Shown: piece after piece, positions 1 through 32,500 of the stretch
Position numbering within the stretch: the first letter of the stretch is position 1
Layout: each line of letters starts with the position of its first letter
Assembly (NCBI RefSeq): GCF_054482595.1
Contig: NZ_CM137008.1
Length of the DNA stretch: 64,000 nt
Strand: one strand, 5' to 3'
The notes under the pieces: model-generated
What the model saw: the letters and a program-made list of their open reading frames with translations, nothing else
Database searches by the model: none
Told to the model about the DNA's origin: nothing
Position numbers and translations under genes: made by a program

Positions 1-126
1 TTGAAGATAAAGGGCGCTTTAAAGAATATGTCCATGATATTCCGGTGTATCTCATCGTCCATGACAATCCGGGGCTTCTCGGTTCCGGTGCACATTTACG
101 CCAGACCTTAGGTCACATTCTGTAAA
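1..126 (+). CDS. glk: Glucokinase, 3' end only (gene starts upstream of window)
   Basis: Frame 3 translates to ...[26 protein letters not shown], recognised as the Glk C-terminus; stop TAA at 124-126; position next to fryB matches K-12 synteny. Confidence 0.8.
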
Positions 127-344
127 TCCTTCCTGTTATATCGGGAGGTAACTCTCCCGATAATCTTTTAAATCATACAGTTAATTCAATTTTTCTTTGT
201 GTCCCCCTCACAAGGCCGACCTGCGTCACACTTCCGTACAGCGGGATTAATTCTCCAGTAAATGCATTATTTGTCTGGTAACGGCGATTTGTTTTGCACG
301 TTCATAATTTCACTCGTCAACTATCACTGAACGAGGAATTAACG

Positions 345-671
345 ATGAGTAAGAAACTAATTGCCTTATGTGCCTGCCCAATGGGCCTGGCTCACACCTT
401 TATGGCCGCTCAGGCGCTGGAAGAAGCAGCGGTAGAAGCCGGTTATGAAGTGAAAATTGAAACCCAGGGCGCGGACGGTATCCAGAATCGCCTGACGGCG
501 CAGGATATCGCCGAAGCGACCATCATCATCCACTCCGTGGCAGTTACCCCGGAAGATAACGAACGTTTCGAATCACGCGACGTTTATGAAATCACTTTGC
601 AGGACGCAATTAAAAACGCTGCGGGCATCATCAAAGAAATCGAAGAGATGATTGCCTCTGAACAACAGTAA
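345..671 (+). CDS. fryB: PTS fructose-like EIIB component
   Basis: ORF 294..671; likely true start at internal MSKKLIALCACPMGLAHTF (Cys phosphorylation motif) preceded by GAGGAA; the 17-codon upstream extension is probably not translated. Confidence 0.85.
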   Translation: MSKKLIALCACPMGLAHTFMAAQALEEAAVEAGYEVKIETQGADGIQNRLTAQDIAEATIIIHSVAVTPEDNERFESRDVYEITLQDAIKNAAGIIKEIEEMIASEQQ

Positions 672-692
672 TATTCGACAGGGATAATTGTT

Positions 693-1940
693 ATGGCCAT
701 TAAAAAACGCAGTGCAACCGTTGTGCCTGGCGCATCCGGTGCGGCAGCGGCAGTTAAGAATCCGCAGGCCTCTAAAAGCAGCTTCTGGGGTGAACTCCCG
801 CAGCATGTGATGTCAGGGATTTCACGCATGGTGCCGACCTTAATTATGGGCGGTGTGATCCTCGCTTTCAGCCAGCTGATTGCTTATAGCTGGCTTAAAA
901 TTCCTGCTGAGATCGGCATCATGGATGCTCTTAATAGCGGGAAATTCTCCGGTTTCGACCTCTCCTTACTGAAATTTGCCTGGTTGTCGCAGTCCTTCGG
1001 CGGCGTGTTGTTTGGTTTTGCCATTCCGATGTTTGCTGCTTTTGTGGCGAACTCTATCGGTGGCAAACTGGCGTTTCCGGCTGGTTTTATCGGCGGCTTG
1101 ATGTCTACCCAGCCGACGCAACTGCTGAACTTCGATCCCAGCACTATGCAATGGGCGACCTCTTCGCCGGTGCCGTCCACCTTTATTGGTGCGCTGATTA
1201 TTTCTATCGTTGCCGGTTACCTTGTGAAATGGATGAACCAGAAAATCCAGTTACCGGATTTCCTGTTAGCGTTCAAAACCACATTTTTGCTACCGATTCT
1301 TTCCGCTATTTTTGTCATGCTGGCGATGTACTACGTCATCACACCATTTGGTGGCTGGATCAACGGCGGTATCCGTACCGTGCTGACTGCCGCAGGTGAG
1401 AAGGGCGCGCTGATGTACGCAATGGGGATCGCCGCGGCGACAGCAATCGACCTTGGTGGCCCGATCAACAAAGCCGCAGGTTTTGTTGCCTTCAGCTTTA
1501 CCACTGACCACGTATTACCGGTCACCGCACGTTCTATCGCTATCGTTATTCCGCCGATTGGTCTGGGTCTGGCGACCATTATTGACCGTCGTTTAACCGG
1601 CAAACGCCTGTTCAACGCACAACTTTATCCGCAGGGTAAGACCGCGATGTTCCTTGCCTTTATGGGGATTAGTGAGGGTGCAATTCCGTTTGCACTGGAA
1701 AGCCCCATCACCGCCATTCCGTCGTATATGGTTGGCGCGATTGTCGGCTCAACCGCCGCTGTCTGGCTGGGCGCAGTGCAATGGTTCCCGGAATCCGCTA
1801 TCTGGGCATGGCCACTGGTCACTAACCTCGGCGTCTACATGGCGGGGATCGCGCTGGGGGCAGTCATAACTGCGCTGATGGTGGTGTTCCTGCGTCTGAT
1901 GATGTTCCGTAAAGGCAAATTGTTAATCGATAGCCTGTAA
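693..1940 (+). CDS. fryC: PTS fructose-like EIIC permease
   Basis: 415 aa hydrophobic multi-helix ORF, recognised as FryC; follows fryB. Confidence 0.85.
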
Positions 1941-1954
1941 GAAGGAAAATCCAG

Positions 1955-3040
1955 ATGACATTACTCGCTTCGCTGCGCGACTGGCTTAAGGCGCAACAAC
2001 TGGATGCAGTGCTTCTCTCATCACGGCAGAACAAACAGCCGCATCTGGGGATCTCCACCGGATCTGGTTATGTGGTGATTAGCCGAGAAAGTGCGCACAT
2101 TCTGGTGGATTCGCGATATTACGCGGATGTGGAAGCCCGCACGCAAGGCTACCAGCTGCATTTGCTTGACGCGACGCACACGCTTGCAACCATCGCCAGG
2201 CAAATCATTGCCGATGAGCAGTTGCAAACGCTCGGTTTTGAAGGCCAGCAGGTGAGTTGGGAAACCGCGCACCGCTGGCAGTCTGAACTCAATGCGAAAC
2301 TGGTTAGCGCCACGCCGGATGTGCTGCGGCAAATCAAAACGCCAGAGGAGGTGGAGAAAATCCGCCTTGCCAGTGGGATTGCCGATCGCGGTGCAGAGCA
2401 TATTCGCCGCTTTATTCAGGCGGGGATGAGCGAGCGCGAGATTGCCGCTGAACTGGAGTGGTTTATGCGCCAGCAGGGCGCAGAAAAAACCTCTTTTGAC
2501 ACCATTGTCGCCAGTGGCTGGCGTGGGGCGCTGCCGCACGGCAAAGCCAGCGACAAGATTGTTGCAGCGGGCGAGTTTGTCACTCTCGATTTCGGTGCGC
2601 TGTATCAGGGCTACTGCTCTGATATGACGCGCACCTTGCTGGTGAATGGCGAAGGGGTGAGCGCCGAATCTCATCCGCTGTTTAACGTCTATCAGATTGT
2701 TTTGCAGGCACAGCTCGCAGCAATCTCTGCAATTCGCCCCGGCGTGCGCTGCCAGCAGGTTGACGACGCCGCGCGTCGGGTGATTACCGAGGCAGGATTT
2801 GGCGACTATTTTGGTCACAACACCGGTCATGCTATTGGCATTGAAGTACACGAAGATCCGCGCTTTTCACCGCGGGATACCACGACGCTACAGCCAGGCA
2901 TGTTACTGACCGTGGAGCCGGGGATTTATTTGCCAGGGCAAGGGGGCGTGCGCATCGAGGATGTTGTGCTGGTCACCCCGCAAGGCGCAGAAGTGCTCTA
3001 CGCCATGCCGAAAACAGTGTTGCTCACGGGAGAGGCATAA
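1955..3040 (+). CDS. ypdF: Xaa-Pro aminopeptidase (M24 family)
   Basis: 361 aa ORF with M24 metal-binding motifs ([20 protein letters not shown]); synteny. Confidence 0.85.
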
Positions 3041-4077
3041 TGGATTTATCGCTATTAAAAGCGTTGAGCGAGGCAGATGCGATCGCCTCCTCGGAACAGG
3101 AAGTGCGGCAGATCCTGCTGGAAGAAGCGGATCGCCTGCAAAAAGAAGTGCGATTTGATGGTCTGGGATCGGTGCTGATCCGCCTCAATGAATCGACAGG
3201 TCCGAAAGTGATGATCTGTGCGCATATGGACGAAGTTGGATTTATGGTGCGCAGTATCTCCCGCGAAGGGGCGATTGATGTGCTGCCGGTTGGCAATGTA
3301 CGCATGGCTGCCCGCCAGCTGCAGCCGGTGCGCATCACCACCCGTGAAGAGTGCAAAATTCCAGGCCTGCTTGACGGCGACCGGCAGGGGAATGATGTCA
3401 GCGCCATGCGCGTGGATATTGGCGCGCGCTCGTATGACGAAGTGATGCAGGCGGGAATTCGTCCAGGCGATCGCGTCACGTTCGATACCACTTTTCAGGT
3501 TCTCCCTCACCAGCGGGTGATGGGGAAAGCCTTTGATGATCGCCTCGGTTGCTATCTGCTGGTGACGTTACTACGTGAGCTGCACGACGCCGAACTGCCT
3601 GCGGAAGTGTGGCTGGTGGCAAGTTCCAGCGAAGAGGTGGGATTACGCGGCGGGCAAACTGCCACCCGCGCGGTGTCGCCGGACGTCGCCATTGTGCTTG
3701 ATACCGCCTGCTGGGCGAAAAACTTTGATTATGGCGCGGCTAACCATCGCCAGATTGGTAACGGGCCGATGCTGGTGTTAAGCGACAAGTCGCTGATTGC
3801 GCCGCCAAAACTTACCGCCTGGGTCGAAACCGTGGCGGCAGAAATTGGCGTGCCGTTGCAGGCAGATATGTTCAGCAACGGCGGCACGGACGGCGGGGCG
3901 GTGCACTTAACCGGCACCGGCGTGCCCACAGTGGTGATGGGGCCAGCAACCCGCCATGGACATTGCGCCGCATCGATTGCCGATTGCCGCGACATTTTGC
4001 AGATGCAGCAACTTTTATCTGCCCTTATTCAACGTCTTACGCGTGAGACGGTTGTTCAACTGACGGATTTCAGATGA
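3040..4077 (+). CDS. ypdE: M42 family aminopeptidase
   Basis: 345 aa ORF; start overlaps ypdF stop (TAATG), suggesting translational coupling; synteny. Confidence 0.85.
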
Positions 4078-4101
4078 TCTCCTGATTAACCCGGAGCGGT
4101 T

Positions 4102-6597
4102 ATGCTAACGATTCAATTTCTCTGTCCTTTGCCTAACGGTCTTCATGCCCGTCCGGCGTGGGAACTTAAAGAACAGTGCAGCCAGTGGCAAAGCGAAATC
4201 ACCTTCATCAACCATCGCCAGAACGCAAAGGCCGATGCCAAAAGCTCGCTGGCGCTGATTGGCACCGGCACCTTATTTAATGACAGTTGCAGCCTGAACA
4301 TTAGCGGCAGCGATGAAGAGCAGGCGCGGCGCGTGCTGGAAGAGTACATCCAGGTGTGCTTTATTGACAGCGACAGCGTTCAGCCAACGCAGGCAGAACT
4401 GACGGCGCATCCGCTGCCGCGTTCATTAAGCCGCCTTAACCCGGATTTACTGTACGGCAATGTGCTGGCAAGCGGCGTCGGCGTGGGTACGCTGACCCTG
4501 TTACAAAGCGACAGCCTCGACAGTTATCGGGCAATCCCCGCCAGTGCGCAAGACTCCACCCGGCTGGAGCACAGCCTGGCAACGCTTGCCGAGCAACTGA
4601 ACCAGCAATTGCGTGAGCGTGACGGCGAAAGCAAAACTATCCTCAGCGCCCATTTGTCGCTGATTCAGGATGATGAGTTCGCGGGCAATATCCGTCGCCT
4701 GATGACAGAACAGCATCAGGGGCTGGGGGCGGCGATCATCAGCAATATGGAGCAGGTTTGCGCCAAACTTTCTGCTTCTGCCAGCGATTATCTGCGCGAA
4801 CGTGTTAGCGACATTCGCGATATTAGCGAACAGTTGCTGCATATTACCTGGCCGGAACTGAAGCCGCGCAACAATCTGGTGCTGGAAAAACCGACTATTC
4901 TGGTGGCCGAGGATTTAGCCCCAAGCCAGTTTTTAAGCCTGGATTTAAAAAATCTTGCGGGCATGATTCTGGAGAAAACCGGGCGCACCTCGCATACCCT
5001 GATTCTGGCCCGCGCCTCGGCGATCCCGGTACTGAGCGGCCTGCCGCTGGATGCGATTGCCCGTTATGCCGGGCAACCTGCAGTGCTTGACGCCCAGTGC
5101 GGCGTGCTGGCGATTAACCCGAATGACGCGGTGAGCGGTTATTATCAGGTCGCGCAGACGCTGGCGGATAAACGCCAAAAACAACAGGCGCAGGCTGCCG
5201 CGCAGCTGGCTTATTCCCGTGATAACAAGCGTATTGATATCGCGGCGAATATTGGCACCGCTCTGGAAGCGCCTGGCGCGTTTGCCAACGGCGCGGAAGG
5301 CGTCGGGCTGTTCCGTACCGAAATGCTCTATATGGATCGCGACAGCGCGCCGGACGAGCAGGAGCAATTTGAAGCCTACCAGCAGGTGCTACTGGCAGCG
5401 GGCGACAAGCCGATTATCTTCCGCACAATGGACATCGGAGGCGATAAAAGCATTCCTTATCTGAATATTCCCCAGGAAGAGAACCCGTTCCTCGGCTATC
5501 GCGCGGTACGTATTTACCCGGAATTTGCTGGCCTGTTCCGCACTCAACTGCGGGCCATTTTGCGCGCAGCCAGTTTCGGCAACGCCCAGTTGATGATCCC
5601 AATGGTCCACAGTCTCGATCAGATCTTATGGGTGAAGGGCGAGATCCAGAAGGCGATCGTTGAGCTTAAGCGCGATGGTTTGCGTCACGCAGAAACGATC
5701 CCTCTGGGGATCATGGTGGAAGTACCGTCGGTGTGCTACATCATCGATCACTTCTGCGATGAGGTCGATTTCTTCAGTATCGGCTCCAACGATATGACCC
5801 AGTATCTGTATGCGGTCGATCGTAATAACCCGCGCGTATCGCCGCTATATAACCCGATTACGCCATCGTTCCTGCGCATGTTGCAGCAAATAGTTACCAC
5901 TGCGCATCAGCGGGGCAAATGGGTAGGCATTTGCGGTGAACTGGGCGGTGAAAGCCGTTATCTGTCGCTACTGCTTGGGCTGGGCCTGGATGAGCTGAGT
6001 ATGAGTAGCCCGCGCATTCCGGCGGTGAAAAGCCAGCTTCGTCAACTGGATAGCGAGGCGTGTCGGGAACTGGCACGTCAGGCGTGTGAATGTCGCAGCG
6101 CGCAGGAAATTGAAGCGTTACTCACCGCCTTTACGCCGGAAGAAGACGTTCGCCCACTGCTGGCGCTGGAGAATATCTTCGTTGATCAGGCCTTTAGCAA
6201 TAAAGAGCAGGCGATCCAGTTCCTGTGCGGTAACCTCGGCGTTAACGGGCGCACTGAACATCCGTTCGAGCTGGAAGAGGATGTCTGGCAGCGGGAAGAG
6301 ATTGTCACCACTGGCGTTGGTTTTGGCGTGGCGATCCCGCACACCAAATCTCAGTGGATCCGTCATTCCAGTATCAGCATTGCCCGGCTGGCGAAACCGG
6401 TTGACTGGCAGTCAGAAATGGGCGAAGTCGAACTGGTGATCATGCTGACGCTGGGTGCTAACGAAGGGATGAATCATGTGAAAGTCTTCTCGCAGCTGGC
6501 GCGTAAACTGGTGAATAAAAACTTCCGCCAGTCGTTGTTTGCCGCGCAAGATGCACAAAGTATCCTGACGCTGCTGGAAACAGAATTAACCTTCTGA
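4102..6597 (+). CDS. fryA: PTS multiphosphoryl transfer protein (HPr-like, enzyme I-like and EIIA-like domains)
   Basis: 831 aa ORF with N-terminal HPr-like region, PEP-utilising enzyme I core and C-terminal EIIA-fructose-like domain. Confidence 0.85.
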   Translation: MLTIQFLCPLPNGLHARPAWELKEQCSQWQSEITFINHRQNAKADAKSSLALIGTGTLFNDSCSLNISGSDEEQARRVLEEYIQVCFIDSDSVQPTQAELTAHPLPRSLSRLNPDLLYGNVLASGVGVGTLTLLQSDSLDSYRAIPASAQDSTRLEHSLATLAEQLNQQLRERDGESKTILSAHLSLIQDDEFAGNIRRLMTEQHQGLGAAIISNMEQVCAKLSASASDYLRERVSDIRDISEQLLHITWPELKPRNNLVLEKPTILVAEDLAPSQFLSLDLKNLAGMILEKTGRTSHTLILARASAIPVLSGLPLDAIARYAGQPAVLDAQCGVLAINPNDAVSGYYQVAQTLADKRQKQQAQAAAQLAYSRDNKRIDIAANIGTALEAPGAFANGAEGVGLFRTEMLYMDRDSAPDEQEQFEAYQQVLLAAGDKPIIFRTMDIGGDKSIPYLNIPQEENPFLGYRAVRIYPEFAGLFRTQLRAILRAASFGNAQLMIPMVHSLDQILWVKGEIQKAIVELKRDGLRHAETIPLGIMVEVPSVCYIIDHFCDEVDFFSIGSNDMTQYLYAVDRNNPRVSPLYNPITPSFLRMLQQIVTTAHQRGKWVGICGELGGESRYLSLLLGLGLDELSMSSPRIPAVKSQLRQLDSEACRELARQACECRSAQEIEALLTAFTPEEDVRPLLALENIFVDQAFSNKEQAIQFLCGNLGVNGRTEHPFELEEDVWQREEIVTTGVGFGVAIPHTKSQWIRHSSISIARLAKPVDWQSEMGEVELVIMLTLGANEGMNHVKVFSQLARKLVNKNFRQSLFAAQDAQSILTLLETELTF

Positions 6598-6599
6598 CG

Positions 6600-7457
6600 T
6601 TAGCCCTGAAAACGGGCGCTGTACTCTCCCGGCGTCAGACCAAACTGACGCCGGAAAACGCGACAAAAATAGTCGCTATCCGGAAAACCGCAACGCTGTG
6701 CCACTTCATGAATTGACAGATGATATTTCTGCAAAATCATCCTCGCCTTCGCCATTCGCACCCAACGCACATATTCGATAAAACGCATTGTTCCATGCTG
6801 AGCAAACAGTTTTGACAGATGATTGGGCGTGATATTAAAAAACTGTGCCACGCTCTCGCGGGTGAGCTGCTGGGCATAATTATCCTGAACCCAGTTACAA
6901 ATGCTGTGATAGAGAAAATCGCCGCGCGGCTGCGAATTGCCCGGTGGCATATTCACCACGTTGCGGCAAAGATGCAGCAAACTTAACACCAGTGGCTGAA
7001 TGATATTCTGCTCCAGCGGCGAACGGCTAAGATGGGTGAGGGCGGTAAGTATCGCTTCACCTTCACCGCGTTGCAGGCTGGGAAGCTGGATCTGGCGAGC
7101 AGGATGCAACAACGACGTGGTGCGGCTATCGTAAAACGATAACCCAAGCCAGGTCGGTGCGAACACCAGACTTAACAGCATCACCGGTTTGTTGTTGATC
7201 GGTAAATTAGCCGCGCGCGCCGGAATAAACAGCATTTCTCCTTCCACCAAACGTTGCTGCTTTGCTTCCAGCAGATTGCCGTATTCGCCGCGCAGCACGA
7301 TATCCAGACGGGGAAAATCAATACATAAACTGCCCACCGGCAACGAGGCAGGCTGGCTGGCAAACCAGACGCGCCCCAGTAGTTGCGGGTTAAGCACCAG
7401 GCCGCTGAACAGATCGGCGAAAAATTGTTGATCGGCGGGCAAGCCTGGTGCTTTCAT
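6600..7457 (-). CDS. ypdC: AraC-family transcriptional regulator
   Basis: 285 aa ORF with C-terminal AraC-type HTH (YFCRVFRRQFGLTPGEY); convergent with fryA. Confidence 0.8.
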   Translation of the reverse strand: MKAPGLPADQQFFADLFSGLVLNPQLLGRVWFASQPASLPVGSLCIDFPRLDIVLRGEYGNLLEAKQQRLVEGEMLFIPARAANLPINNKPVMLLSLVFAPTWLGLSFYDSRTTSLLHPARQIQLPSLQRGEGEAILTALTHLSRSPLEQNIIQPLVLSLLHLCRNVVNMPPGNSQPRGDFLYHSICNWVQDNYAQQLTRESVAQFFNITPNHLSKLFAQHGTMRFIEYVRWVRMAKARMILQKYHLSIHEVAQRCGFPDSDYFCRVFRRQFGLTPGEYSARFQG

Positions 7458-7469
7458 GAAAGTTCCCGA

Positions 7470-8204
7470 TTAAAGATGCATTAACTGGCGAAATTCTTTT
7501 ACTTTGCTGCGGCTGACTGGCACTTCAAAATCCAGATCTTTCAGCCGCAGAATATAGGTGTTATTAAACCACGGTTCGATTTCGCGGATTTTGTTCAGAT
7601 TGACACAAAATGAGCGATGGCAGCGGAAAAAATGCGACGGCGGCAGTTTGCTGCAAAATTCGGTAATGTTCATCGGCATTACGTAGGATTCACGCCGCGT
7701 ATAGACAAAGGTCATTTTCTCGTGCGCTTCGGCGTAATAGATATCGTTAATTGGCGTGACGATTATTCGCTCATCTTTCACCAGATTAATGGTGTCATTC
7801 TCACGCGTTACCGTCGCGGCAGGCGTGCTGCTGGTCTGCTGTTGTTGCCAGGCCGCTTCCAGTTTTTGCAGCATCCCGGTAATGCGTGACTCCTGATACG
7901 GTTTGAGAATGTAGTCAAACGCCTCCAGTTCAAACGCTTCTACCGCATGTTCTTTCCACGCGGTGATGAACACAATAAACGGTTTATGGGCGAACTGGCT
8001 GATGTTTTGCGCCAGCAACACACCATCCAGCGACGGAATATTGATATCCAGAAAAATGGCGTCGACGCGGTTATGCTGCAAAAACTTCAACACGTCCAGA
8101 CCGTCGTCAAAGGTGCCGACAATCTCCATCTGGCTGTGCTCTTTAATTAGCCAGCTCAGTTCCTGTTGTGCCAGGAATTCGTCTTCAACAATGATGACTT
8201 TCAC
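7470..8204 (-). CDS. ypdB: LytTR-family response regulator of the YpdA/YpdB two-component system
   Basis: Receiver domain plus LytTR DNA-binding domain; ORF extends to 8222 but a GTG start (VKVIIVEDE) at 8204 gives the expected length and avoids overlap with ypdA. Confidence 0.8.
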   Translation of the reverse strand: MKVIIVEDEFLAQQELSWLIKEHSQMEIVGTFDDGLDVLKFLQHNRVDAIFLDINIPSLDGVLLAQNISQFAHKPFIVFITAWKEHAVEAFELEAFDYILKPYQESRITGMLQKLEAAWQQQQTSSTPAATVTRENDTINLVKDERIIVTPINDIYYAEAHEKMTFVYTRRESYVMPMNITEFCSKLPPSHFFRCHRSFCVNLNKIREIEPWFNNTYILRLKDLDFEVPVSRSKVKEFRQLMHL

Positions 8205-8218
8205 AATATCACTCCGGC

Positions 8219-9916
8219 TCAAAGCAATAACGTAGCCTGTGAGGCGACTGGGGTGCGTTGGTTAGGAATGTAAAACGCAATTTCCGTTCCTGGTTCCAGG
8301 CGGCGGATATGCAGCCCCTCGCCATACAATAACTTCACGCGATGATGGACATTCAGCAGGCCAATTTTATTGCCCGGCATTTCATTCGCTTCGACCCGCT
8401 CAATCACCTTTGGATCGATGCCGTGCCCGGTATCCCGCACGGCAATGCGTACCCGATTGCCGCACTCTGCAACGCTGATGGTGACAACGCCTTTACCTTT
8501 GCAAGGCTGGATACCGTGGACAATGGCATTCTCCACCAACGGCTGGATCAGCAGGCTGGGAATGCAGCAATTCACCTCTTCATCAATATCATAGATAACC
8601 GTCAGCTTGTCGCCAAAGCGGGCCTGCTCAATGGCAATATAGTCTTTAATTTGATACAGCTCTTTTTTGATATCGATTTGCTCATCGTCTTTTAATTCAA
8701 TGTTATAGCGCAGATAACGCGACAGATTAAAGATCAGCTGGCGAGCAGTATCCGGATTCAGACGGATTGACGATGAAATAGCGTTCAAAGCGTTAAACAG
8801 GAAATGGGGATTAATTTTGCTTTGCAGGGCGCGAAGCTCTGCCTTATTTGCCATTTCACGTAGCTGCTCGGCGCGTGAAACCTCCAGTTGCGTGGAGATG
8901 ATTTGCGACAGACCAACCGCCATTTCCTGTAATGACGAGGTTATCTGATGCGCGTGGCAGTAGTAAATTTTCAGCGTTCCGGTCACAACGCCTTTCTCCC
9001 ACAATGGGATCACCAGCATGGAATGAATCTCTGGTGTGCGGTGGGCTTCATCATTGTTTTTAATGATGATTTTTCCGTAATTCATCGCCTGACGGGTAGT
9101 CGGGCTAATGAAGTCATCGCCATTCTGATAGTTATGTTCACCCACGCCAACATAGGCCAGCACATGATCGGTATTGGTAATCGCCACCGCATCGGCGTGA
9201 ATGTCATCGCGAATAATTTCACAAACTTTGCGTAATGACTCGCTATTGACATGGCGAAACAGAGGTAGCGTTTTGTTGGCGATATCCAGCGCCAACTTGG
9301 CCTGCCGCGCGGCGCTGGCCTCTTTTTCGCCCTCAACGCTTTGCACCAGAAGCACAATAAAGCCGATACAGACGCTGCCGAGGATCATTGGAATCCCGAT
9401 TTTAGAGACGATATCGATCCCCAACGCGGTAGTTGGTGCCCAGACAATCACCAGAATCATGGTCAACGTTTCACACAACATGCCGCCGAGAATACCGACG
9501 CGCCAGCGCTGTGCTTTGGGGATTTTCAGGTTGATCCAGCCCGATATACAACCAGCCAGAATGCTGGTGATAAAGCAGGGGATCGCCGTCACGCCACCGA
9601 TATCAATTAAATAACGATGAATACCCGCAATCACGCCGGTAATGATGCCCACCCACGGGCCAAACAGAATCCCGCCGGACATCACCGCGATAATACGTAC
9701 GTTCACCAGCGAGCCTTCTACGGGAACGCCGGACCAGGTGCTGAAGAGGGCGAACAGAGAGAAAATGGCGGTAACGGCGAGCAACTCTTTCGGTGAGTGT
9801 GCCGACTTGTGCAACAGTTCGCGAAACAGGCGGATACGGATGAGAAAGAACAGGCAGATAAGCATTAACGCTGCCCGATCGAAGACCGCCAGCAGCATGT
9901 TGAATATTTCGTGCAC
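8219..9916 (-). CDS. ypdA: Sensor histidine kinase (LytS-like, membrane domain plus GAF and HATPase)
   Basis: 565 aa ORF with N-terminal multi-TM region and C-terminal histidine-kinase ATPase motifs (DTGHGI); immediately upstream of ypdB. Confidence 0.85.
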
Positions 9917-10292
9917 GGGTGACTCTGAATAAGGATTAAACCTCTATGATAGGTAACCTGAAGGCTGATGACCAGCAGGCCGTTTTTGAGGAAAAACCAC
10001 AATTTTAAAAGGGGATTGATAGATAAATGGTGTATTAGCAATGCATCTCTTGATAATGCACTTCTGGTTGGTAAATTTATTGAAATTATTATGTTAATAA
10101 AATGAGTGGTAATTTTCTTGTTAGCGCAGATAATTTTCCTGTTTTTAAAGCAGAGTTCCTCATTTAACGTCATTAATAAAAATGTTCTAAAACGCTGGAC
10201 AGACAGAAATTAATCAGGCTATTTTCAAAACAGCCACCATCGTGGCAGCGTCGCTCGGACGGTCCGGGCGCTAACGTTAATCTGAGGAAATT

Positions 10293-11531
10293 ATGGCTGA
10301 CACTCGCCCTGAACGTCGCTTTACGCGCATTGATCGTCTCCCGCCCTATGTTTTTAACATTACCGCTGAACTGAAAATGGCTGCGCGTCGGCGCGGCGAA
10401 GATATTATCGATTTCAGTATGGGTAACCCGGACGGTGCGACTCCGCCGCATATCGTCGAAAAATTATGTACTGTGGCCCAGCGCCCGGACACGCATGGTT
10501 ACTCCACTTCACGCGGTATTCCGCGGCTACGTCGCGCCATTTCCCGCTGGTATCAGGATCGCTACGACGTTGAAATCGACCCGGAATCAGAAGCCATCGT
10601 CACTATTGGTTCGAAAGAGGGCCTGGCGCATCTGATGCTGGCGACACTGGATCACGGTGACACAGTGCTGGTGCCGAATCCAAGTTACCCCATTCATATT
10701 TACGGCGCGGTGATTGCCGGGGCTCAGGTACGCTCAGTGCCGCTGGTGGAAGGTGTCGATTTCTTCAACGAACTGGAGCGCGCCATTCGTGAAAGTTATC
10801 CGAAACCGAAGATGATGATCCTCGGCTTCCCGTCGAACCCAACCGCGCAATGCGTGGAACTGGAGTTCTTCGAAAAGGTTGTGGCGCTGGCGAAACGCTA
10901 CGATGTGCTGGTGGTCCATGACCTGGCCTATGCCGATATCGTCTACGATGGCTGGAAAGCGCCGTCAATCATGCAGGTGCCGGGTGCACGCGATGTGGCG
11001 GTCGAGTTCTTTACGCTGTCGAAAAGCTACAACATGGCGGGCTGGCGTATCGGCTTTATGGTTGGCAACAAAACGCTGGTCAGCGCCCTGGCACGTATTA
11101 AAAGCTATCACGATTACGGCACCTTTACGCCGTTGCAGGTGGCGGCGATTGCGGCACTCGAGGGCGATCAACAGTGCGTGCGCGACATTGCCGAACAGTA
11201 CAAACGCCGCCGTGATGTATTGGTTAAAGGGCTGCATGAAGCGGGCTGGATGGTCGAAATGCCGAAGGCTTCGATGTATGTCTGGGCGAAAATACCGGAA
11301 CCGTATGCTGCCATGGGCTCGCTGGAATTTGCCAAGAAATTGCTTAACGAAGCGAAGGTCTGTGTCTCTCCGGGGATTGGCTTTGGCGACTATGGTGATA
11401 CGCATGTGCGCTTTGCACTGATTGAAAACCGCGACCGTATTCGTCAGGCGATTCGTGGGATTAAAGCGATGTTCCGTGCCGACGGTTTACTACCCGCCAG
11501 CAGCAAACATATTCACGAAAACGCGGAATAA
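10293..11531 (+). CDS. alaC: Glutamate-pyruvate aminotransferase (class I/II aminotransferase)
   Basis: 412 aa ORF with the PLP-lysine motif region ([12 protein letters not shown]); synteny. Confidence 0.85.
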
Positions 11532-13295: not shown

Positions 13296-13538
13296 ATGAT
13301 TTATTTATGGATGTTTCTCGCCCTGTGTATTGTCTGCGTAAGCGGCTACATCGGTCAGGTACTGAACGTGGTATCGGCGGTCTCTTCTTTCTTCGGCATG
13401 GTGATCCTCGCTGCACTCATTTATTACTTCACCATGTGGTTAACAGGCGGTAATGAACTGGTGACGGGGATATTTATGTTTCTTGCCCCGGCTTGTGGCT
13501 TGATGATTCGCTTTATGGTGGGGTATGGCAGGCGGTAG
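13296..13538 (+). CDS. yfdY: Small inner-membrane protein
   Basis: 80 aa hydrophobic ORF in the K-12 yfdY position. Confidence 0.6.
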   Translation: MIYLWMFLALCIVCVSGYIGQVLNVVSAVSSFFGMVILAALIYYFTMWLTGGNELVTGIFMFLAPACGLMIRFMVGYGRR

Positions 13539-13614
13539 TGGGTCAGGATGGCTCATTTGGGCAGGTGTTCACATCAGCATCAGACATGATTGCTCACCTG
13601 CCATGTGACAGACG

Positions 13615-13890
13615 CTATCGCACAGGATGAATAAGATAACTCGCCTTTGTCGGATAAGTGGGCGTGGTTTCTTCTGTGAGGTTTAATGGTGGCGCATCTT
13701 CTCTCATCTTAAACAAAATCGCCTGTGATGGCTGAAATTTTGTAGAGTGAGTTGTCGTCATCGCTGACGTTTTTTCCGTCTCTTTATAGCTCGCCTCACT
13801 ACCACCACCAGAAATAGAAAATGCAAAAACATTGCATGCCATAATAGAGACCAATAAAAATAAGCTAAAAAGCATTAAGTTTACTTTCAT
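13615..13890 (-). CDS. ypdI: Putative lipoprotein
   Basis: 91 aa ORF with signal peptide and lipobox-like (SIMAC) motif; AT-rich; synteny. Confidence 0.55.
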   Translation of the reverse strand: MKVNLMLFSLFLLVSIMACNVFAFSISGGGSEASYKETEKTSAMTTTHSTKFQPSQAILFKMREDAPPLNLTEETTPTYPTKASYLIHPVR

Positions 13891-14042
13891 AGAAAGTTAT
13901 CCTGAAAATGGTTCACTGAAAACCTACGACGTTATGGCTGTATTTACATATAATTAATCAGTATTTACATCGATATAATAAATGACATCTCTTTGTGGTA
14001 TATAAGAATAGTTCTCTGTGACAGGAAGCAGATTCCTACAAC

Positions 14043-14060
14043 TGTAAGATTAAAATACTT
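14043..14060. promoter_or_regulatory. Candidate EvgA box upstream of yfdX
   Basis: TTCCTACA-AC-TGTAAGAT, a near-perfect match to the EvgA inverted-repeat consensus TTCYTACA-N2-TGTARGAA, about 125 bp upstream of the yfdX start. Confidence 0.55.
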
Positions 14061-14185
14061 CTTGCGATAATAACTACAAGTGTAAGATAACCCTTTCAAA
14101 ATGACCGTTGCTCTCTGATTTCTCATTTCATGCTCACCCAATATGATGGCGGCGTTTTCTAAAACTGTTAAAGAATGAGGTAAGT

Positions 14186-14818
14186 ATGAAACGTTTAATT
14201 ATGGCTACGATGGTCACAGCTATTCTGGCATCTTCAACTGTATGGGCTGCTGATAATGCACCGGTAGCGGCACAACAGCAAACTCAGCAAGTTCAGCAAA
14301 CCCAGAAAACGGCAGCAGCAGAGCGTATCTCTGAACAAGGTTTATATGCGATGCGTGACGTGCAGGTAGCGCGCCTGGCTCTGTTTCATGGCGATCCGGA
14401 AAAGGCAAAAGAACTGACCAATGAAGCTTCCGCTTTGTTGTCAGATGACAGTACCGAATGGGCAAAGTTCGCTAAGCCAGGTAAAAAGACCAATCTCAAT
14501 GATGACCAATATATTGTCATTAATGCATCTGTCGGAATTTCTGAGAGTTATGTAGCGACACCCGAAAAAGAAGCCGCGATAAAAATTGCCAATGAAAAAA
14601 TGGCGAAAGGGGATAAAAAGGGCGCAATGGAAGAGCTTCGCCTGGCCGGTGTTGGTGTAATGGAAAACCAATATCTGATGCCGCTTAAACAGACTCGTAA
14701 TGCACTTGCTGATGCGCAGAAACTGCTTGATAAAAAGCAATACTACGAGGCAAACCTGGCGCTTAAAGGTGCGGAAGATGGAATCATCGTCGATAGCGAA
14801 GCACTGTTTGTGAACTAA
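14186..14818 (+). CDS. yfdX: Periplasmic protein YfdX
   Basis: 210 aa ORF with signal peptide; recognised YfdX; synteny. Confidence 0.8.
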
Positions 14819-25244: not shown

Positions 25245-26408
25245 GTGGAACAGATTAATTCAAATAAAAAACATTCTAACAGAAGAAAATACTTTTCTTT
25301 ATTGGCGGTAGTTTTATTTATTGCGTTTTCAGGTGCCTATGCCTATTGGTCAATGGAATTAGAAGACATGATTAGTACAGATGACGCCTATGTCACGGGG
25401 AATGCAGATCCAATTTCTGCACAAGTCTCAGGTAGTGTCACTGTCGTTAATCATAAAGATACGAACTACGTTCGACAAGGTGACATTTTAGTTTCACTGG
25501 ATAAAACTGATGCCACTATCGCACTCAATAAAGCTAAAAATAATCTGGCAAATATTGTTCGGCAAACGAATAAACTGTACTTACAGGATAAACAATACAG
25601 TGCCGAAGTCGCTTCAGCACGTATTCAGTATCAACAATCTTTAGAAGATTATAACCGTCGTGTGCCTTTAGCGAAGCAGGGGGTTATTTCAAAAGAAACG
25701 CTGGAGCATACCAAAGATACGTTAATAAGTAGCAAAGCGGCATTGAATGCCGCTATCCAGGCTTATAAAGCGAATAAAGCTTTAGTAATGAACACACCAT
25801 TAAACCGTCAGCCACAAGTCGTGGAAGCGGCGGATGCAACCAAAGAAGCCTGGTTGGCGCTTAAACGTACGGATATTAAGAGTCCGGTTACCGGCTATAT
25901 TGCCCAGAGAAGTGTTCAGGTCGGCGAAACAGTGAGCCCCGGACAATCGTTAATGGCTGTCGTACCGGCACGTCAAATGTGGGTTAATGCCAACTTTAAA
26001 GAAACACAACTCACGGATGTACGGATTGGTCAATCGGTCAATATTATCAGCGATCTTTATGGTGAAAATGTTGTGTTTCATGGTCGGGTGACAGGGATCA
26101 ATATGGGAACCGGCAATGCGTTCTCCTTATTACCTGCACAAAATGCGACAGGGAACTGGATCAAAATCGTTCAGCGTGTACCGGTTGAAGTTTCTCTTGA
26201 TCCAAAAGAACTCATGGAACACCCCTTGCGCATTGGTTTATCGATGACTGCAACTATTGATACGAAGGACGAAGACATTGCTGAGATGCCTGATCTGGCT
26301 TCAACCGTGACCTCCATGCCTGCTTATACCAGTAAGGCTTTAGTTATCGATACCAGTCCGATAGAAAAAGAAATTAGCAACATTATTTCGCATAATGGAC
26401 AACTTTAA
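25245..26408 (+). CDS. emrK: Multidrug efflux membrane fusion protein (EmrA paralogue)
   Basis: 387 aa ORF, HlyD-family; exact start uncertain (several in-frame Met); overlaps emrY start (TAATG). Confidence 0.85.
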   Translation: MEQINSNKKHSNRRKYFSLLAVVLFIAFSGAYAYWSMELEDMISTDDAYVTGNADPISAQVSGSVTVVNHKDTNYVRQGDILVSLDKTDATIALNKAKNNLANIVRQTNKLYLQDKQYSAEVASARIQYQQSLEDYNRRVPLAKQGVISKETLEHTKDTLISSKAALNAAIQAYKANKALVMNTPLNRQPQVVEAADATKEAWLALKRTDIKSPVTGYIAQRSVQVGETVSPGQSLMAVVPARQMWVNANFKETQLTDVRIGQSVNIISDLYGENVVFHGRVTGINMGTGNAFSLLPAQNATGNWIKIVQRVPVEVSLDPKELMEHPLRIGLSMTATIDTKDEDIAEMPDLASTVTSMPAYTSKALVIDTSPIEKEISNIISHNGQL

Positions 26409-29399: not shown

Positions 29400-29630
29400 T
29401 TAGATGATAAATGACAGCAGGAATGTGCCCGCCAGAGCGACGACTGAAGCGATAAATGTCGCTGTCGTATAGTATTTAAATGTTTCATTGAGCGTAGCGC
29501 CGCAATATTGCTTCACCAGCCAGAAAAGCGAGTCCGTAACGATCGTGCAGCCAATTGCGCCTGAACCGATAGCAATCGCAATAATTTCCGGGCTGATGTC
29601 GGGATACAGCGGCAGCACAATGATCCATAT
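29400..29630 (-). pseudogene. dsdX: 3' remnant of dsdX (D-serine permease, GntP family)
   Basis: Only about 72 C-terminal codons (…[27 protein letters not shown]) remain; in-frame stop immediately upstream of 29630; the rest of dsdX and all of dsdC are absent. Confidence 0.7.
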
Positions 29631-29848
29631 TTATATTTTCTTCTCCAGGTTGGCGATGCCAGTTGGCATGTTTTTCTTACTTGCCTATATGGTTACTCGT
29701 TGGCGAGAACAGAGGCGGAATTGGGGACAATTGGCCGGGAATTATTGTTATTTTTTATTGTATTGCCGTGTCAGGTGATAGGGCGTTGGATCTCGCCAGT
29801 GACGTCTGTTTCTGCTACAGTGCCCGTTTTACGACAAACGGCTTGGGT

Positions 29849-30844
29849 ATGGCTTCATTAAAGGATGTCGCACGCCTGGCGGGAGTGTCGATGATGACAG
29901 TCTCCCGGGTGATGCATAATGCAGAATCTGTGCGTCCTGCAACGCGTGACCGCGTATTGCAGGCAATCCAGACCCTGAATTATGTTCCTGATCTTTCCGC
30001 CCGTAAGATGCGCGCTCAAGGACGTAAGCCGTCGACTCTCGCCGTGCTGGCGCAGGACACTGCTACCACTCCTTTCTCTGTTGATATTCTGCTTGCCATT
30101 GAGCAAACCGCCAGCGAGTTCGGCTGGAATAGTTTTTTAATCAATATTTTTTCTGAAGATGACGCTGCCCGCGCGGCACGTCAGCTGCTTGCTCACCGTC
30201 CGGATGGCATTATCTATACTACAATGGGGCTGCGACATATCACGCTGCCTGAGTCTCTGTATGGTGAAAATATTGTATTGGCGAACTGTGTGGCGGATGA
30301 CCCAGCGTTACCCAGTTATATCCCTGATGATTACACTGCACAATATGAATCAACACAGCATTTGCTCGCGGCGGGCTATCGTCAACCGTTATGCTTCTGG
30401 CTACCGGAAAGTGCGTTGGCAACAGGGTATCGTCGGCAGGGATTTGAGCAGGCCTGGCGTGATGCTGGACGAGATCTGGCTGAGGTGAAACAATTTCACA
30501 TGGCAACAGGTGATGATCACTACACCGATCTCGCAAGTTTACTCAATGACCACTTCAAATCGGGCAAACCAGATTTTGATGTTCTGATATGTGGTAACGA
30601 TCGCGCAGCCTTTGTGGCTTATCAGGTTCTCCTGGCGAAGGGGGTACGTATCCCGCAGGATGTCGCCGTAATGGGCTTTGATAATCTGGTTGGCGTCGGG
30701 CATCTGTTTTTACCGCCGCTGACCACAATTCAGCTTCCACATGACATTATCGGGCGGGAAGCTGCATTGCATATTATTGAAGGTCGTGAAGGGGGAAGTG
30801 TGACGCGGATCCCTTGCCCGCTGTTGATCCGTTGTTCCACCTGA
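29849..30844 (+). CDS. cscR: Sucrose operon repressor (LacI/GalR family)
   Basis: ORF 29663..30844; N-terminal HTH begins at MASLKDVARLAGVSMMTVSRV (29849), giving 331 aa. Confidence 0.85.
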   Translation: MASLKDVARLAGVSMMTVSRVMHNAESVRPATRDRVLQAIQTLNYVPDLSARKMRAQGRKPSTLAVLAQDTATTPFSVDILLAIEQTASEFGWNSFLINIFSEDDAARAARQLLAHRPDGIIYTTMGLRHITLPESLYGENIVLANCVADDPALPSYIPDDYTAQYESTQHLLAAGYRQPLCFWLPESALATGYRRQGFEQAWRDAGRDLAEVKQFHMATGDDHYTDLASLLNDHFKSGKPDFDVLICGNDRAAFVAYQVLLAKGVRIPQDVAVMGFDNLVGVGHLFLPPLTTIQLPHDIIGREAALHIIEGREGGSVTRIPCPLLIRCST

Positions 30845-30851
30845 TATTATG

Positions 30852-32285
30852 CTAACCCAGTTGCCAGAGTGCTCCATGTTGCACCACAGCCACTCCGTGG
30901 GAGGCATAAAGCGACAGTTCCCGTTCTTCTGGCTGCGGATAGATTCGACTACTCATCACCGCTTCCCCGTCGTTAATAAATACTTCCACGGATGATGTAT
31001 CGATAAATATCCTTAGGGCGAGCGTCTCACCCTGCGGGAGGAGAATACTACGGTAGCCGTCTAAATTCTCGTGTGGGTAATACCGCCACAAAACAAGTCG
31101 CTCAGATTGGTTATCAATATACAGCCGCATTCCAGTGCCGAGCTGTAATCCGTAATGTTCGGCATCACTGTTCTTCAGCGCCCACTGCAACTGAATCTCA
31201 ACTGCTTGCGCGTTTTCCTGCAAAACATATTTATTGCTGATTGTGCGGGGAGAGATAGATTGATGCTGCTGGCGTAACGACTCAGCTTCGTGTACCGGGC
31301 GTTGTAGGAGTTTGCCATTGCTCTCTGATAGCTCACGCGCCAGCGTCATGCAGCCTGCCCAGCCTTCACGTTTTGAGGGCATTGGCGATTCCCACATATC
31401 CATCCAGCCGATAACAATACGCCGACCATCCTTCGCTAAAAAGCTTTGTGGTGCATAAAAGTCATGCCCGTTATCAAGTTCAGTAAAATGCCCGGATTGT
31501 GCAAAAAGTCGTCCTGGCGACCACATTCCGGGTATTACGCCACTTTGAAAGCGATTTCGATAACTGTATCCCTCGGCATTCATTCCCTGCGGGGAAAACA
31601 TCAGATAATGCTGATCGCCAAGGCTGAAAAAGTCCGGACATTCCCACATATAGCTTTCACCCGCATCAGCGTGGGCCAGTACGCGATCGAAAGTCCATTC
31701 ACGTAATGAACTGCCGCGATAAAGCAGGATCTGCCCCGTGTTGCCTGGGTCTTTCGCCCCGACTACCATCCACCATGAGTCGGCTTCACGCCACACTTTA
31801 GGATCGCGGAAGTGCATGATTCCTTCTGGTGGAGTGAGGATCACACCCTGTTTCTCGAAATGAATACCATCCCGACTGGTAGCCAGACATTGTACTTCGC
31901 GAATTGCATCGTCATTACCTGCACCATCGAGCCAGACGTGTCCGGTGTAGATAAGTGAGAGGACACCATTGTCATCGACAGCACTACCTGAAAAACACCC
32001 GTCTTTGTCATTCTCGTCTCCTGGCGCTAGCGCAATAGGCTCATGCTGCCAGTGGATCATATCGTCGCTGGTAGCATGTCCCCAGTGCATTGGCCCCCAG
32101 TGTTCGCTCATCGGGTGATGTTGATAAAACGCGTGATAACGATCGTTAAACCAGATCAGGCCGTTTGGATCGTTCATCCACCCGGCAGGAGGCGCGAGGT
32201 GAAAATGGGGATAGAAAGTGTTACCCCGGTGCTCATGAAGTTTTGCTAGTGCGTTTTGCGCTGCATGCAATCGAGATTGCGTCAT
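30852..32285 (-). CDS. cscA: Sucrose-6-phosphate hydrolase / invertase (GH32)
   Basis: GH32 motifs (WMNDPNG, FRDPKV, WECPD); ORF extends to 32294, start taken at MTQSRLHAAQ. Confidence 0.85.
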   Translation of the reverse strand: MTQSRLHAAQNALAKLHEHRGNTFYPHFHLAPPAGWMNDPNGLIWFNDRYHAFYQHHPMSEHWGPMHWGHATSDDMIHWQHEPIALAPGDENDKDGCFSGSAVDDNGVLSLIYTGHVWLDGAGNDDAIREVQCLATSRDGIHFEKQGVILTPPEGIMHFRDPKVWREADSWWMVVGAKDPGNTGQILLYRGSSLREWTFDRVLAHADAGESYMWECPDFFSLGDQHYLMFSPQGMNAEGYSYRNRFQSGVIPGMWSPGRLFAQSGHFTELDNGHDFYAPQSFLAKDGRRIVIGWMDMWESPMPSKREGWAGCMTLARELSESNGKLLQRPVHEAESLRQQHQSISPRTISNKYVLQENAQAVEIQLQWALKNSDAEHYGLQLGTGMRLYIDNQSERLVLWRYYPHENLDGYRSILLPQGETLALRIFIDTSSVEVFINDGEAVMSSRIYPQPEERELSLYASHGVAVVQHGALWQLG

Positions 32286-32319
32286 TTTAATCATCCTGGT
32301 TAAGCAAATTTGGTGAATT

Positions 32320-32331
32320 GTTAACGTTAAC
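32320..32331. promoter_or_regulatory. Candidate CscR operator (perfect palindrome GTTAACGTTAAC), copy 1
   Basis: 12 bp perfect palindrome in the cscA/cscK divergent promoter; identical copy 64 bp downstream. Confidence 0.5.
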
Positions 32332-32364
32332 TTTTATAAAAATAAAGTCCCTTACTTTCATAAA

Positions 32365-32380
32365 TGCGATGAATATCACA
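32365..32380. promoter_or_regulatory. CRP-like site in the csc divergent promoter
   Basis: TGCGA-tgaata-TCACA resembles the TGTGA-N6-TCACA consensus with one mismatch. Confidence 0.35.
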
Positions 32381-32383
32381 AAT

Positions 32384-32395
32384 GTTAACGTTAAC
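32384..32395. promoter_or_regulatory. Candidate CscR operator (perfect palindrome GTTAACGTTAAC), copy 2
   Basis: Identical 12 bp palindrome; central CG as in many LacI-family operators. Confidence 0.5.
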
Positions 32396-32500
32396 TATGA
32401 CATTTTGTGATCGAATATGCATGTTTTAGTAAATCCATGACGATTTTGCGAAAAAGAGGTTTATCACTATGCGTAAGTCAGATGAATTTAAGGGAAAAAA

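Follow-up and report, generated by a model that had tools for sequence, protein, structure and literature searches.

Three peptidases of the M42 family are encoded in Escherichia coli (PMC3511314). Their genes all lie inside operons for phosphoenolpyruvate (PEP)-dependent phosphotransferase systems (PTS): ypdE belongs to fry, frvX to frvABXR and sgcX to the sgc cluster (sgcXBCQAER). This report concerns the fry operon, fryB-fryC-ypdF-ypdE-fryA, and the neighboring regulatory gene ypdC, as found in a stretch of 64,000 nucleotides (NCBI RefSeq assembly GCF_054482595.1, contig NZ_CM137008.1), which is called the window below. Like fry, frv and sgc are orphan PTS operons that include an M42 gene; FrvX and SgcX are 35% and 32% identical to YpdE, respectively. 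In contrast to fry, they have no M24 peptidase partner, no fused protein uniting enzyme I (EI), HPr and enzyme IIA (EIIA), and other regulators. A reading of the window made without database searches (the sequence-only reading) had described the pairing of a PTS with peptidases as unusual, a view that falls with the position of the three E. coli M42 genes and with the recurrence of fry-type clusters in three phyla.

Several better described systems share part of the fry layout. MngA and MngB, which handle 2-O-alpha-mannosyl-D-glycerate, resemble what is proposed below for Fry in that a PTS of the fructose (Fru) family takes up a sugar bound to a small non-sugar acid, after which the phosphorylated product is cleaved in the cytoplasm. 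The splitting enzyme MngB is a glycoside hydrolase, whereas the fry enzymes are two aminopeptidases, joined outside the enterics by a pyridoxal phosphate (PLP)-dependent lyase. Matches to the MngA model (5e-24 for FryB, 2e-29 for FryC) score far below its cut-off, so that Fry is no MngA ortholog. The chb, cel and bgl operons combine EIIA, enzyme IIB (EIIB) and enzyme IIC (EIIC) of the lactose/cellobiose (Lac) family, a PTS family that takes glycosides with an aglycone, with a PRD regulator, as do the fry-type loci termed Type B below. In Type B loci, however, M42, M24 and PatB genes stand where the 6-phospho-beta-glycosidase is found in those operons, and no gene of glycoside hydrolase family GH1 or GH4 recurs nearby (114 flanking open reading frames (ORFs) from 14 loci). 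The malX-malY pair of E. coli is like the module in having a PTS EIIBC gene followed by a PatB/MalY lyase gene; unlike fry, it has a permease of the glucose (Glc) family and no peptidases, and MalY is annotated as MalT antagonist and cystathionine beta-lyase. Finally, the fructoselysine and glucoselysine systems (frl, and gfr with a mannose-family PTS and deglycases) take up sugar-amino acid conjugates, partly via a PTS, and cleave the phosphorylated conjugate in the cytoplasm. They differ from fry in their PTS family and in using SIS-domain deglycases, none of which recurs beside the fry-type module in the same set of flanking ORFs.

The fry operon starts with fryB (345-671, plus strand), which encodes a Fru-type EIIB of 108 aa, and continues on the same strand with fryC (693-1940; EIIC permease, 415 aa), ypdF (1955-3040; M24B Xaa-Pro-type metallo-aminopeptidase, 361 aa), ypdE (3040-4077; M42 aminopeptidase of the TET type, 345 aa) and fryA (4102-6597; fused HPr-EI-EIIA(Fru) multiphosphoryl transfer protein, 831 aa). 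The intergenic gaps are, in gene order, 21, 14, -1 and 24 bp; the overlap is a TAATG formed by the ypdF stop TAA (3038-3040) and the ypdE start ATG (3040-3042). These assignments come from the ORF list, the RefSeq annotation and Pfam/NCBIfam matches (PTS_IIB; PTS_EIIC; Creatinase_N+Peptidase_M24; Peptidase_M42), or Pfam in the case of fryA (HPr+EI+EIIA_2), and they bear out the tight packing and the five domain types recognized in the sequence-only reading. The start given there needs one correction: position 294 is a TTG that opens the longest ORF, and the annotated fryB start is the ATG at 345, which is conserved across genera and preceded by GAGGA at 333-337.

The association between these genes was followed across bacteria with YpdE as the query. 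In a HMMER search of 1.84 billion cluster representatives, YpdE relatives show a gap in identity, the enterobacterial orthologs being at least 75% identical and the next relatives 42-45%. Metagenome contigs were retrieved for six of these next relatives. PTS EIIA/EIIB/EIIC genes are present on four of the six; genes with Creatinase_N+Peptidase_M24 domains and genes with a class I/II aminotransferase fold accompany three of these four and also occur on a fifth contig, and the sixth carries the M42 gene alone. A genome scan limited to one genome per species then gave 80 loci, with M42 proteins ranging from 97% to 29% identity to YpdE, whose neighbor genes were tabulated by tblastn; linkage was thus queried from the M42 side. 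When the M42 protein is at least 38% identical to YpdE, a YpdF-like M24 gene is adjacent in 18 of 20 loci and EIIB in 17 of 20, and the contigs of the two loci lacking M24 (L025 and L029) end before its expected position. Below 38% identity, an M24 neighbor was found in 0 of 60 loci and EIIB in 3 of 60. Without correction for phylogeny, the Fisher p values for linkage are 5e-16 for M24 and 1e-11 for EIIB. No PTS-linked Firmicutes counterpart of FrvX or SgcX was found in the 80 loci, the nearest relatives being generic M42 proteins without PTS neighbors.

The linked genes occur in three arrangements. In the Enterobacterales (Escherichia, Citrobacter, Pseudocitrobacter, Superficieibacter and Hafnia) the order is IIB-IIC-M24-M42-[HPr-EI-IIA] with a convergent AraC-type gene. 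Type A loci (Enterocloster lavalensis, Hungatella and other Lachnospiraceae) read PRD regulator-IIA(Fru)-IIB-IIC-M24-M42-PatB, and Type B loci (Clostridium cavendishii, Faecalibacillus, Erysipelotrichales, Terrisporobacter, Companilactobacillus and the actinobacterium Olsenella) read PRD regulator-M42-IIA(Lac)-IIB-IIC-M24-PatB. Type A is collinear with the EIIB-EIIC-M24-M42 block of E. coli, with identities of 70-75% for FryB, 59-64% for FryC, 43-47% for YpdF and 42-43% for YpdE; fryB and fryC are the two best-conserved genes of the module. The PTS of Type B belongs to the lactose/cellobiose family (TIGR00410 at 273.8 bits, cut-off 236), and its M42 protein passes the NCBI equivalog model for YpdE (487.5 bits, cut-off 412). 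Since the same enzymes are kept through a switch of PTS family and of gene order, functional coupling is favored over hitch-hiking, and we regard it as highly probable that the peptidases are functionally coupled to the PTS. The segment 345-4077 of the window, with adjacent EIIB and EIIC genes, a YpdF-like M24 and a YpdE-like M42, is the E. coli representative. What is new here is the existence of a PTS+M24+M42(+PatB) module in three phyla, the gene content of the E. coli locus having been annotated before. The earlier suggestion that the peptidases process an imported substrate is strengthened by this conservation.

Other arrangements of M42 genes were seen in the same survey. Four loci of Lachnospiraceae and Clostridium (L046, L060, L068, at about 5000-11060, and L036) combine a PRD regulator, PTS IIA/IIB/IIC genes and two tandem M42 genes without M24; the tandem proteins are 26% and 34-35% identical to YpdE, and these loci look like a second, separate PTS-M42 association. 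Double-length M42 proteins of about 700-790 aa, in which two stretches match YpdE or the match is limited to one half of the chain, and tandem genes form a further set (P0138, P0146, P0154, P0157, P0160, P0176, P0203 and P0260; L057, L059, L063, L074, L077, L082, L086 and L091). Many genomes of Chloroflexota and Firmicutes carry three M42 genes in a row.

The aminotransferase-fold gene of the module encodes a PatB-family C-S lyase (TIGR04350 at 348.7 and 368.8 bits, cut-off 340) of which there are two subtypes, about 30% identical to each other. It is found in every non-enteric locus having sequence past the peptidase genes. The E. coli fry cluster lacks it, ypdE being followed by fryA, and because of this absence fry is classed as a variant of the module rather than a full member. 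The alaC gene, 6 kb away, was considered as a remnant of the module lyase and ruled out, since AlaC shares only about 22% identity with the module lyases. Between MalY of E. coli and the Type A lyase, identity is 40%. In strain K-12 (locus L094, 3356-6130), malY directly follows the PTS permease gene malX, a second pairing of PTS and lyase.

The flanking ORFs yielded no recurrent glycosidase, sugar kinase, isomerase or aldolase, nor any recurrent secreted enzyme; a single family, the RDD membrane proteins, recurred (5 of the 114). With no recurrent sugar enzyme nearby, the module enzymes would act solely on peptide or amino-acid bonds. In five loci, the gene directly after PatB has about 200-225 codons (L012, 7743-8363; L027, 15363-16040; L030, 15512-16153; L032, 10756-11358; L033, 10873-11487); Pfam confirmed RDD for that of L012, and the E. 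coli cluster has no counterpart. In a single locus (L005, 153-5862), genes for a PTS-Fru EIIBCA, a HAD hydrolase, a SIS-domain protein, a PfkB kinase and a class II aldolase lie directly upstream of the module regulator; they form an amino-sugar/tagatose-like pathway that could process a released sugar phosphate. The same locus has an alanine dehydrogenase gene just after the lyase gene (13506-14624), and at C. cavendishii a gene for a DAO-family FAD amino-acid oxidase is located just upstream of the module (L022, 6691-7905), each seen in one locus.

The proteins encoded by the fry operon retain the residues expected of active transporters and enzymes. FryB (PF02302 at 1.1e-19; TIGR00829 at 92.2 bits, passing the cut-off of 76.85) is an EIIB of the Fru/Lac fold with an N-terminal active-site cysteine; the phosphorylatable Cys11 is kept, in an ACPMG motif within ALCACPMGLAHT. 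Along FryA, Pfam places HPr, EI-N, mobile, PEP-binding and EIIA_2 domains, five in all, and FryA matches TIGR01417 at 499 bits (cut-off 341.7). All its carrier motifs are kept on the one chain, namely His15 in GLHARPA (HPr), GRTSHT (EI His), GICGE (EI Cys, with the PEP-binding domain) and AIPHT (EIIA His). A phosphoryl relay from FryA to FryB and then to the substrate follows from these domains and is well grounded, and a relay self-contained in FryA would make the system independent of the general PtsI and HPr. FryC, which is the specificity determinant of the system, matches PF02378 at 52 bits (cut-off 30.7) and scores 157.4 bits against the fructose-IIC subfamily model TIGR01427, just under its cut-off of 157.55. 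Neither FryB nor FryC reaches the cut-off of any NCBIfam equivalog model, that for fructose included, FryC being far below, and no fruK-like gene is annotated in the operon. The RefSeq names call the fry PTS genes fructose transporter subunits. EIIB and EIIA place Fry in the Fru family (TC 4.A.2), but since FryC lies under the IIC subfamily cut-off and the equivalog models fail, 'fructose transporter' is a family label and not a statement of specificity.

YpdF, with a Creatinase_N and a pita-bread domain, scores 809.9 bits against its equivalog model NF007310 (cut-off 393), its metal pentad (D212, D223, H292, E321 and E335) is invariant in the module orthologs and its structure has been solved (5CNX). 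YpdE scores 681.4 bits against NF007421 (cut-off 412), its metal and catalytic residues (H62, D166/D167, E198, E199, D221 and H308) are likewise invariant, and a structure is available for the Shigella ortholog, of near-identical sequence (1YLO). A dodecameric state of YpdE has been mentioned as unpublished data (PMC3511314).

The operon is selected and functional, not decaying. The ratio of nonsynonymous to synonymous substitution rates (dN/dS) relative to Citrobacter youngae is 0.015 for fryB, 0.034 for fryC, 0.12 for ypdF, 0.046 for ypdE, 0.053 for fryA and 0.087 for ypdC, and values overall range from 0.015 to 0.14; they are approximate, synonymous sites being saturated, and still far below 1. 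Within the Enterobacteriaceae, ypdF diverges faster (identity 68-74%, dN/dS 0.12-0.14) than the transporter genes fryB and fryC (92-96%, 0.015-0.034), and the same ranking is found in comparison with Lachnospiraceae. Several E. coli chromosomes match the first 12 kb of the window at 100% identity, and this stretch is found in 5424 of 5426 complete E. coli genomes, with coverage of at least 80% in 5412. The fry locus is thus a core and long annotated locus of E. coli, and its description from the sequence was in itself no discovery. Published phenotypes hint at a role in host or peptide-rich settings: a ypdE deletion mutant was outcompeted in the mouse bladder (competitive index 0.30; PMC8767336), and an in-frame fryA deletion improved fitness in prolonged LB culture (PMC5364489).

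Downstream of fryA, on the minus strand, lie ypdC (6600-7457; AraC-family regulator, 285 aa), ypdB (7470-8204; LytTR response regulator) and ypdA (8219-9916; LytS-type histidine kinase), separated by 12 and 14 bp, and next, in the RefSeq annotation, alaC. ORF list, RefSeq and Pfam (AraC HTH; Response_reg+LytTR; 5TMR_LYT+GAF+His_kinase+HATPase) agree with the sequence-only reading on these convergent genes; its grouping of YpdA, YpdB and YpdC as a regulatory trio does not hold as a functional unit for fry, on two lines of evidence. One is inheritance. The ypdC gene is beside fryA in 8 of 8 enterobacterial loci, including those of Hafnia paralvei and Superficieibacter electus, where it abuts fryA and is not followed by ypdA or ypdB. 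As ypdC stays by fryA where ypdAB are missing, it belongs to the cassette and they do not: the cassette is fryBC-ypdFE-fryA plus ypdC, and ypdAB are lineage-specific neighbors. Upstream of the operon, glk is found in Escherichia, Citrobacter and Pseudocitrobacter, whereas Hafnia and Superficieibacter lack it there. The other line is the YpdB binding motif. YpdA/YpdB are described as a pyruvate-responsive two-component system (PMC5552118), and the binding site of YpdB in the yhjX promoter is a direct repeat of GGCATTTCAT (PMC4847170). No match to GGCATTTCAT with up to 2 mismatches is present in the fryB promoter (126-344), and control of fryB by YpdB was rejected on this ground; window-wide, the motif occurs 91 times compared to 90.7 expected.

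YpdC has the C-terminal double helix-turn-helix (HTH_18 at 9.6e-21, residues 204-281) and N-terminal effector domain of the AraC/XylS family, and matches a RhaR-like model over residues 47-281. No YpdC targets were found in the literature searched. Its constant position next to fryA makes it probable that YpdC is the regulator of fry, and the fryB upstream region, aligned from six genera, offers a candidate site. The best-conserved non-coding stretch of this alignment is a 29-bp block, TCCAGTAAATGCATTATTTGTCTGGTAAC (254-282, plus strand), which contains CAGTAA (256-261) and TGGTAA (276-281), 20 bp apart, and an imperfect dyad CCAG...CTGG. With a transcription start presumed near 315, it would extend from about -61 to -33 and so span the -35 position. 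A putative -10 hexamer, CATAAT (303-308, plus strand), has its CATA and final T invariant in the six genera and falls within the TTG extension from 294; no -35 hexamer is recognizable in the promoter, which is why CATAAT was missed by a generic promoter scan. Further upstream is a half-conserved CRP-like site, GCCGA-N6-TCACA (215-230, plus strand), that would be centered at about -92.5. Its GA (218-219) and TCACA (226-230) are invariant in the six genera, and the Hafnia version, TGCGA-N6-TCACA, is a near-consensus CRP site. At araBAD, the AraC site overlaps the -35 region and CRP binds upstream. The fryB promoter appears similar, with an AraC-family gene adjacent, a block over about -61 to -33 and a CRP-like site near -92.5; in comparison with araBAD, its half-sites are spaced by 20 bp and their symmetry is ambiguous, direct or inverted. 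Judged by conservation, the layout would be that expected for a class II activator of the AraC type acting with CRP.

The following scheme is the one we favor. FryA would take phosphate from PEP and pass it internally from EI to HPr and EIIA and then to Cys11 of FryB, which would phosphorylate the substrate during translocation by FryC. We infer both the class of this substrate and the order of the later steps. As the sole associated enzymes are two complementary aminopeptidases, with a beta-lyase in addition outside the enterics, the substrate would be a sugar bearing an amino acid or short peptide; a glyco-amino acid or glycopeptide is a serious candidate, though we place it somewhat short of an even chance. 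In the cytoplasm, YpdE would strip N-terminal residues and YpdF would deal with Xaa-Pro bonds, the trimming leaving a single substituted amino acid or freeing the sugar phosphate. In the Firmicutes and Actinobacteria, the PLP-dependent beta-lyase of the PatB/MalY type would finish by beta-elimination, giving pyruvate, ammonia and a leaving group, either the sugar phosphate or a thiol. The sugar phosphate released would be a common one that requires no dedicated enzyme. YpdC would be a substrate-responsive activator at the block overlapping the -35 region, possibly together with CRP. The ypdAB genes encode an unrelated pyruvate sensor that simply adjoins the cassette in the Escherichia/Citrobacter lineage. 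Taken as a whole, the package of an autonomous PTS for conjugates, trimming by YpdE and YpdF and activation by YpdC seems to us about equally likely to be right or wrong. A broader proposal, to which we attach distinctly less confidence, is that fry and its Firmicutes and Actinobacteria counterparts form a hitherto undescribed PTS pathway for glycosylated amino acids or short glycopeptides, in which trimming by M42 and M24 peptidases followed by PatB/MalY beta-elimination replaces a phospho-glycosidase. Substrates might then be, for example, O-glycosyl-Ser/Thr fragments (from mucins, the IgA1 hinge or yeast mannoproteins) or S- and N-linked sugar-cysteine conjugates, and the products might be sugar phosphate, pyruvate and ammonia.

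A number of points weigh against the favored scheme. We know of no PTS that needs peptidases. YpdE and YpdF reportedly behave as ordinary aminopeptidases on plain peptides in vitro (Zheng et al., 2005), and it is we who infer that they act on glycosylated or phosphorylated substrates. The chemistry of fry in E. coli may differ from that of the Firmicutes module, PatB being absent. The linkage statistics come from phylogenetically non-independent loci, and horizontal transfer of a block would keep genes linked for some time without functional coupling. On the side of regulation, the promoter elements rest on a footprint of six sequences, and generic scans of positions 1-10400 returned promoters and terminators at chance level (10 compared to 9.4 expected, and 12 compared to 12.4 expected, respectively). 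YpdC gave no ChIP-exo peaks under laboratory conditions in 2021 (PMC8464067). Finally, the literature searched holds no substrate assignment for fry; its substrate was called unknown in 2017 (PMC5364489), and on this the sequence-only reading, which had described it as undefined, is upheld.

Other explanations were weighed against the same evidence. Fry may be an ordinary PTS for a fructose-like sugar whose peptidases are housekeeping enzymes that are merely co-transcribed. FryB, FryC and the EIIA domain do belong to the Fru family, the RefSeq names say fructose, and YpdE and YpdF are members of generic aminopeptidase families with solved structures. Yet M24 and M42 stay with the PTS in three phyla, three gene orders and two PTS families, FryB and FryC are under the fructose equivalog cut-offs, and neither a fruK-like gene nor any other sugar enzyme is part of the module or recurs nearby; we therefore consider this explanation unlikely. 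Slightly less likely still is a PTS that serves mainly as a sensor or regulator, as PTS-Ntr and EIIA-Glc do; peptide catabolism by YpdE, YpdF and the lyase would then be controlled by its phosphorylation state, which the PEP/pyruvate ratio or a signal sugar would set. Such a role would suit a self-contained FryA that reads PEP, the amino-acid- or peptide-directed nature of all the associated enzymes and the proximity in E. coli of the pyruvate sensors YpdA/YpdB. It does not account for a full-length EIIC that is always present and among the most conserved components (dN/dS 0.034; 59-64% identity across phyla), nor for the PRD-type regulators of the Firmicutes versions, which are typical of substrate-induced transport operons.

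The lack of any recurring sugar-processing gene, with every module enzyme directed at amino acids or peptides, also leads to the idea of a substrate without sugar: a hydroxyl-bearing amino-acid derivative, or a peptide containing Ser, Thr or Hyp, would be trimmed to an O-phospho amino acid, and removal of its phosphate by the PatB-type lyase would yield pyruvate. Beta-elimination from O-phospho- or O-substituted serine is a usual reaction of PLP enzymes. However, non-carbohydrate substrates are not known for any PTS of the Fru or Lac families, and two sugar-type PTS families serving the same enzymes are more easily explained by a sugar moiety, which leaves this idea very improbable. The least credible alternative is that a horizontally acquired block has left fry as a cryptic remnant, decaying and functionless in E. 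coli today. Neither an inducer nor a laboratory phenotype is known, YpdC is silent in ChIP-exo, fry has neither the PatB lyase nor the PRD regulator of the presumed donor-type module, and the cassette, with a G+C content of 0.51-0.58, lies slightly over the window (0.49). The remnant is largely refuted by the dN/dS of 0.015-0.14, obtained with saturated dS; moreover, the frames are intact, no catalytic residue has been lost, 5412 of 5426 genomes carry the locus and a ypdE mutant is attenuated in the bladder.

The boundaries of the fry unit and some other features of the window were also recorded. In Escherichia and Citrobacter, the unit is bounded upstream by the 3' end of glk (to 125, plus strand, by RefSeq annotation) and a terminator-like hairpin, TATCGGGAGGTAACTCTCCCGATA, with a T-run (139-162, plus strand). 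At the other end, the convergent stop codons of fryA and ypdC (6595-6602) are 2 bp apart; the two genes overlap by 4 nt in Hafnia (L021, 13564-13567) and are separated by 3 nt in Superficieibacter (L020, 13559-13563). The terminator scan of 1-10400 placed no terminator between them and no terminator-like hairpin is present there, so that the fryA and ypdC transcripts must overlap, and the operon and its putative regulator may interfere with each other by antisense transcription. Rfam models run over the whole window matched a single tRNA (35179-35250), with no riboswitch or leader near fryB. This tRNA-Arg gene flanks a strain-variable insertion: csc sucrose genes (a LacI-type regulator, cscA, a kinase and an oligosaccharide transporter of the major facilitator superfamily) and a truncated dsdX, at about 29400-35250, the csc genes being located between dsdA and the tRNA gene. 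The segment 12001-61962 is a 99.994% match to strain XH990, with a single-base indel near 26373 in emrK (about 25245-26408), a gene annotated as frameshifted in XH990.

The substrates of the orphan E. coli systems fry, frv, frw and sgc have been unknown since the genome was sequenced. For fry, the conserved peptidase partners, the non-enteric lyase unaccompanied by a recurrent sugar enzyme and YpdC as its own probable regulator now provide a concrete biochemical hypothesis, candidate substrates and a promoter element. If a pathway for glycosylated amino acids or short glycopeptides is indeed what the module encodes, it would give a metabolic role to MalY-type lyases encoded beside PTS permeases, and if the substrate is a host- or diet-derived glycopeptide, fry would give E. 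coli of the gut and urinary tract a new way of obtaining nutrients.

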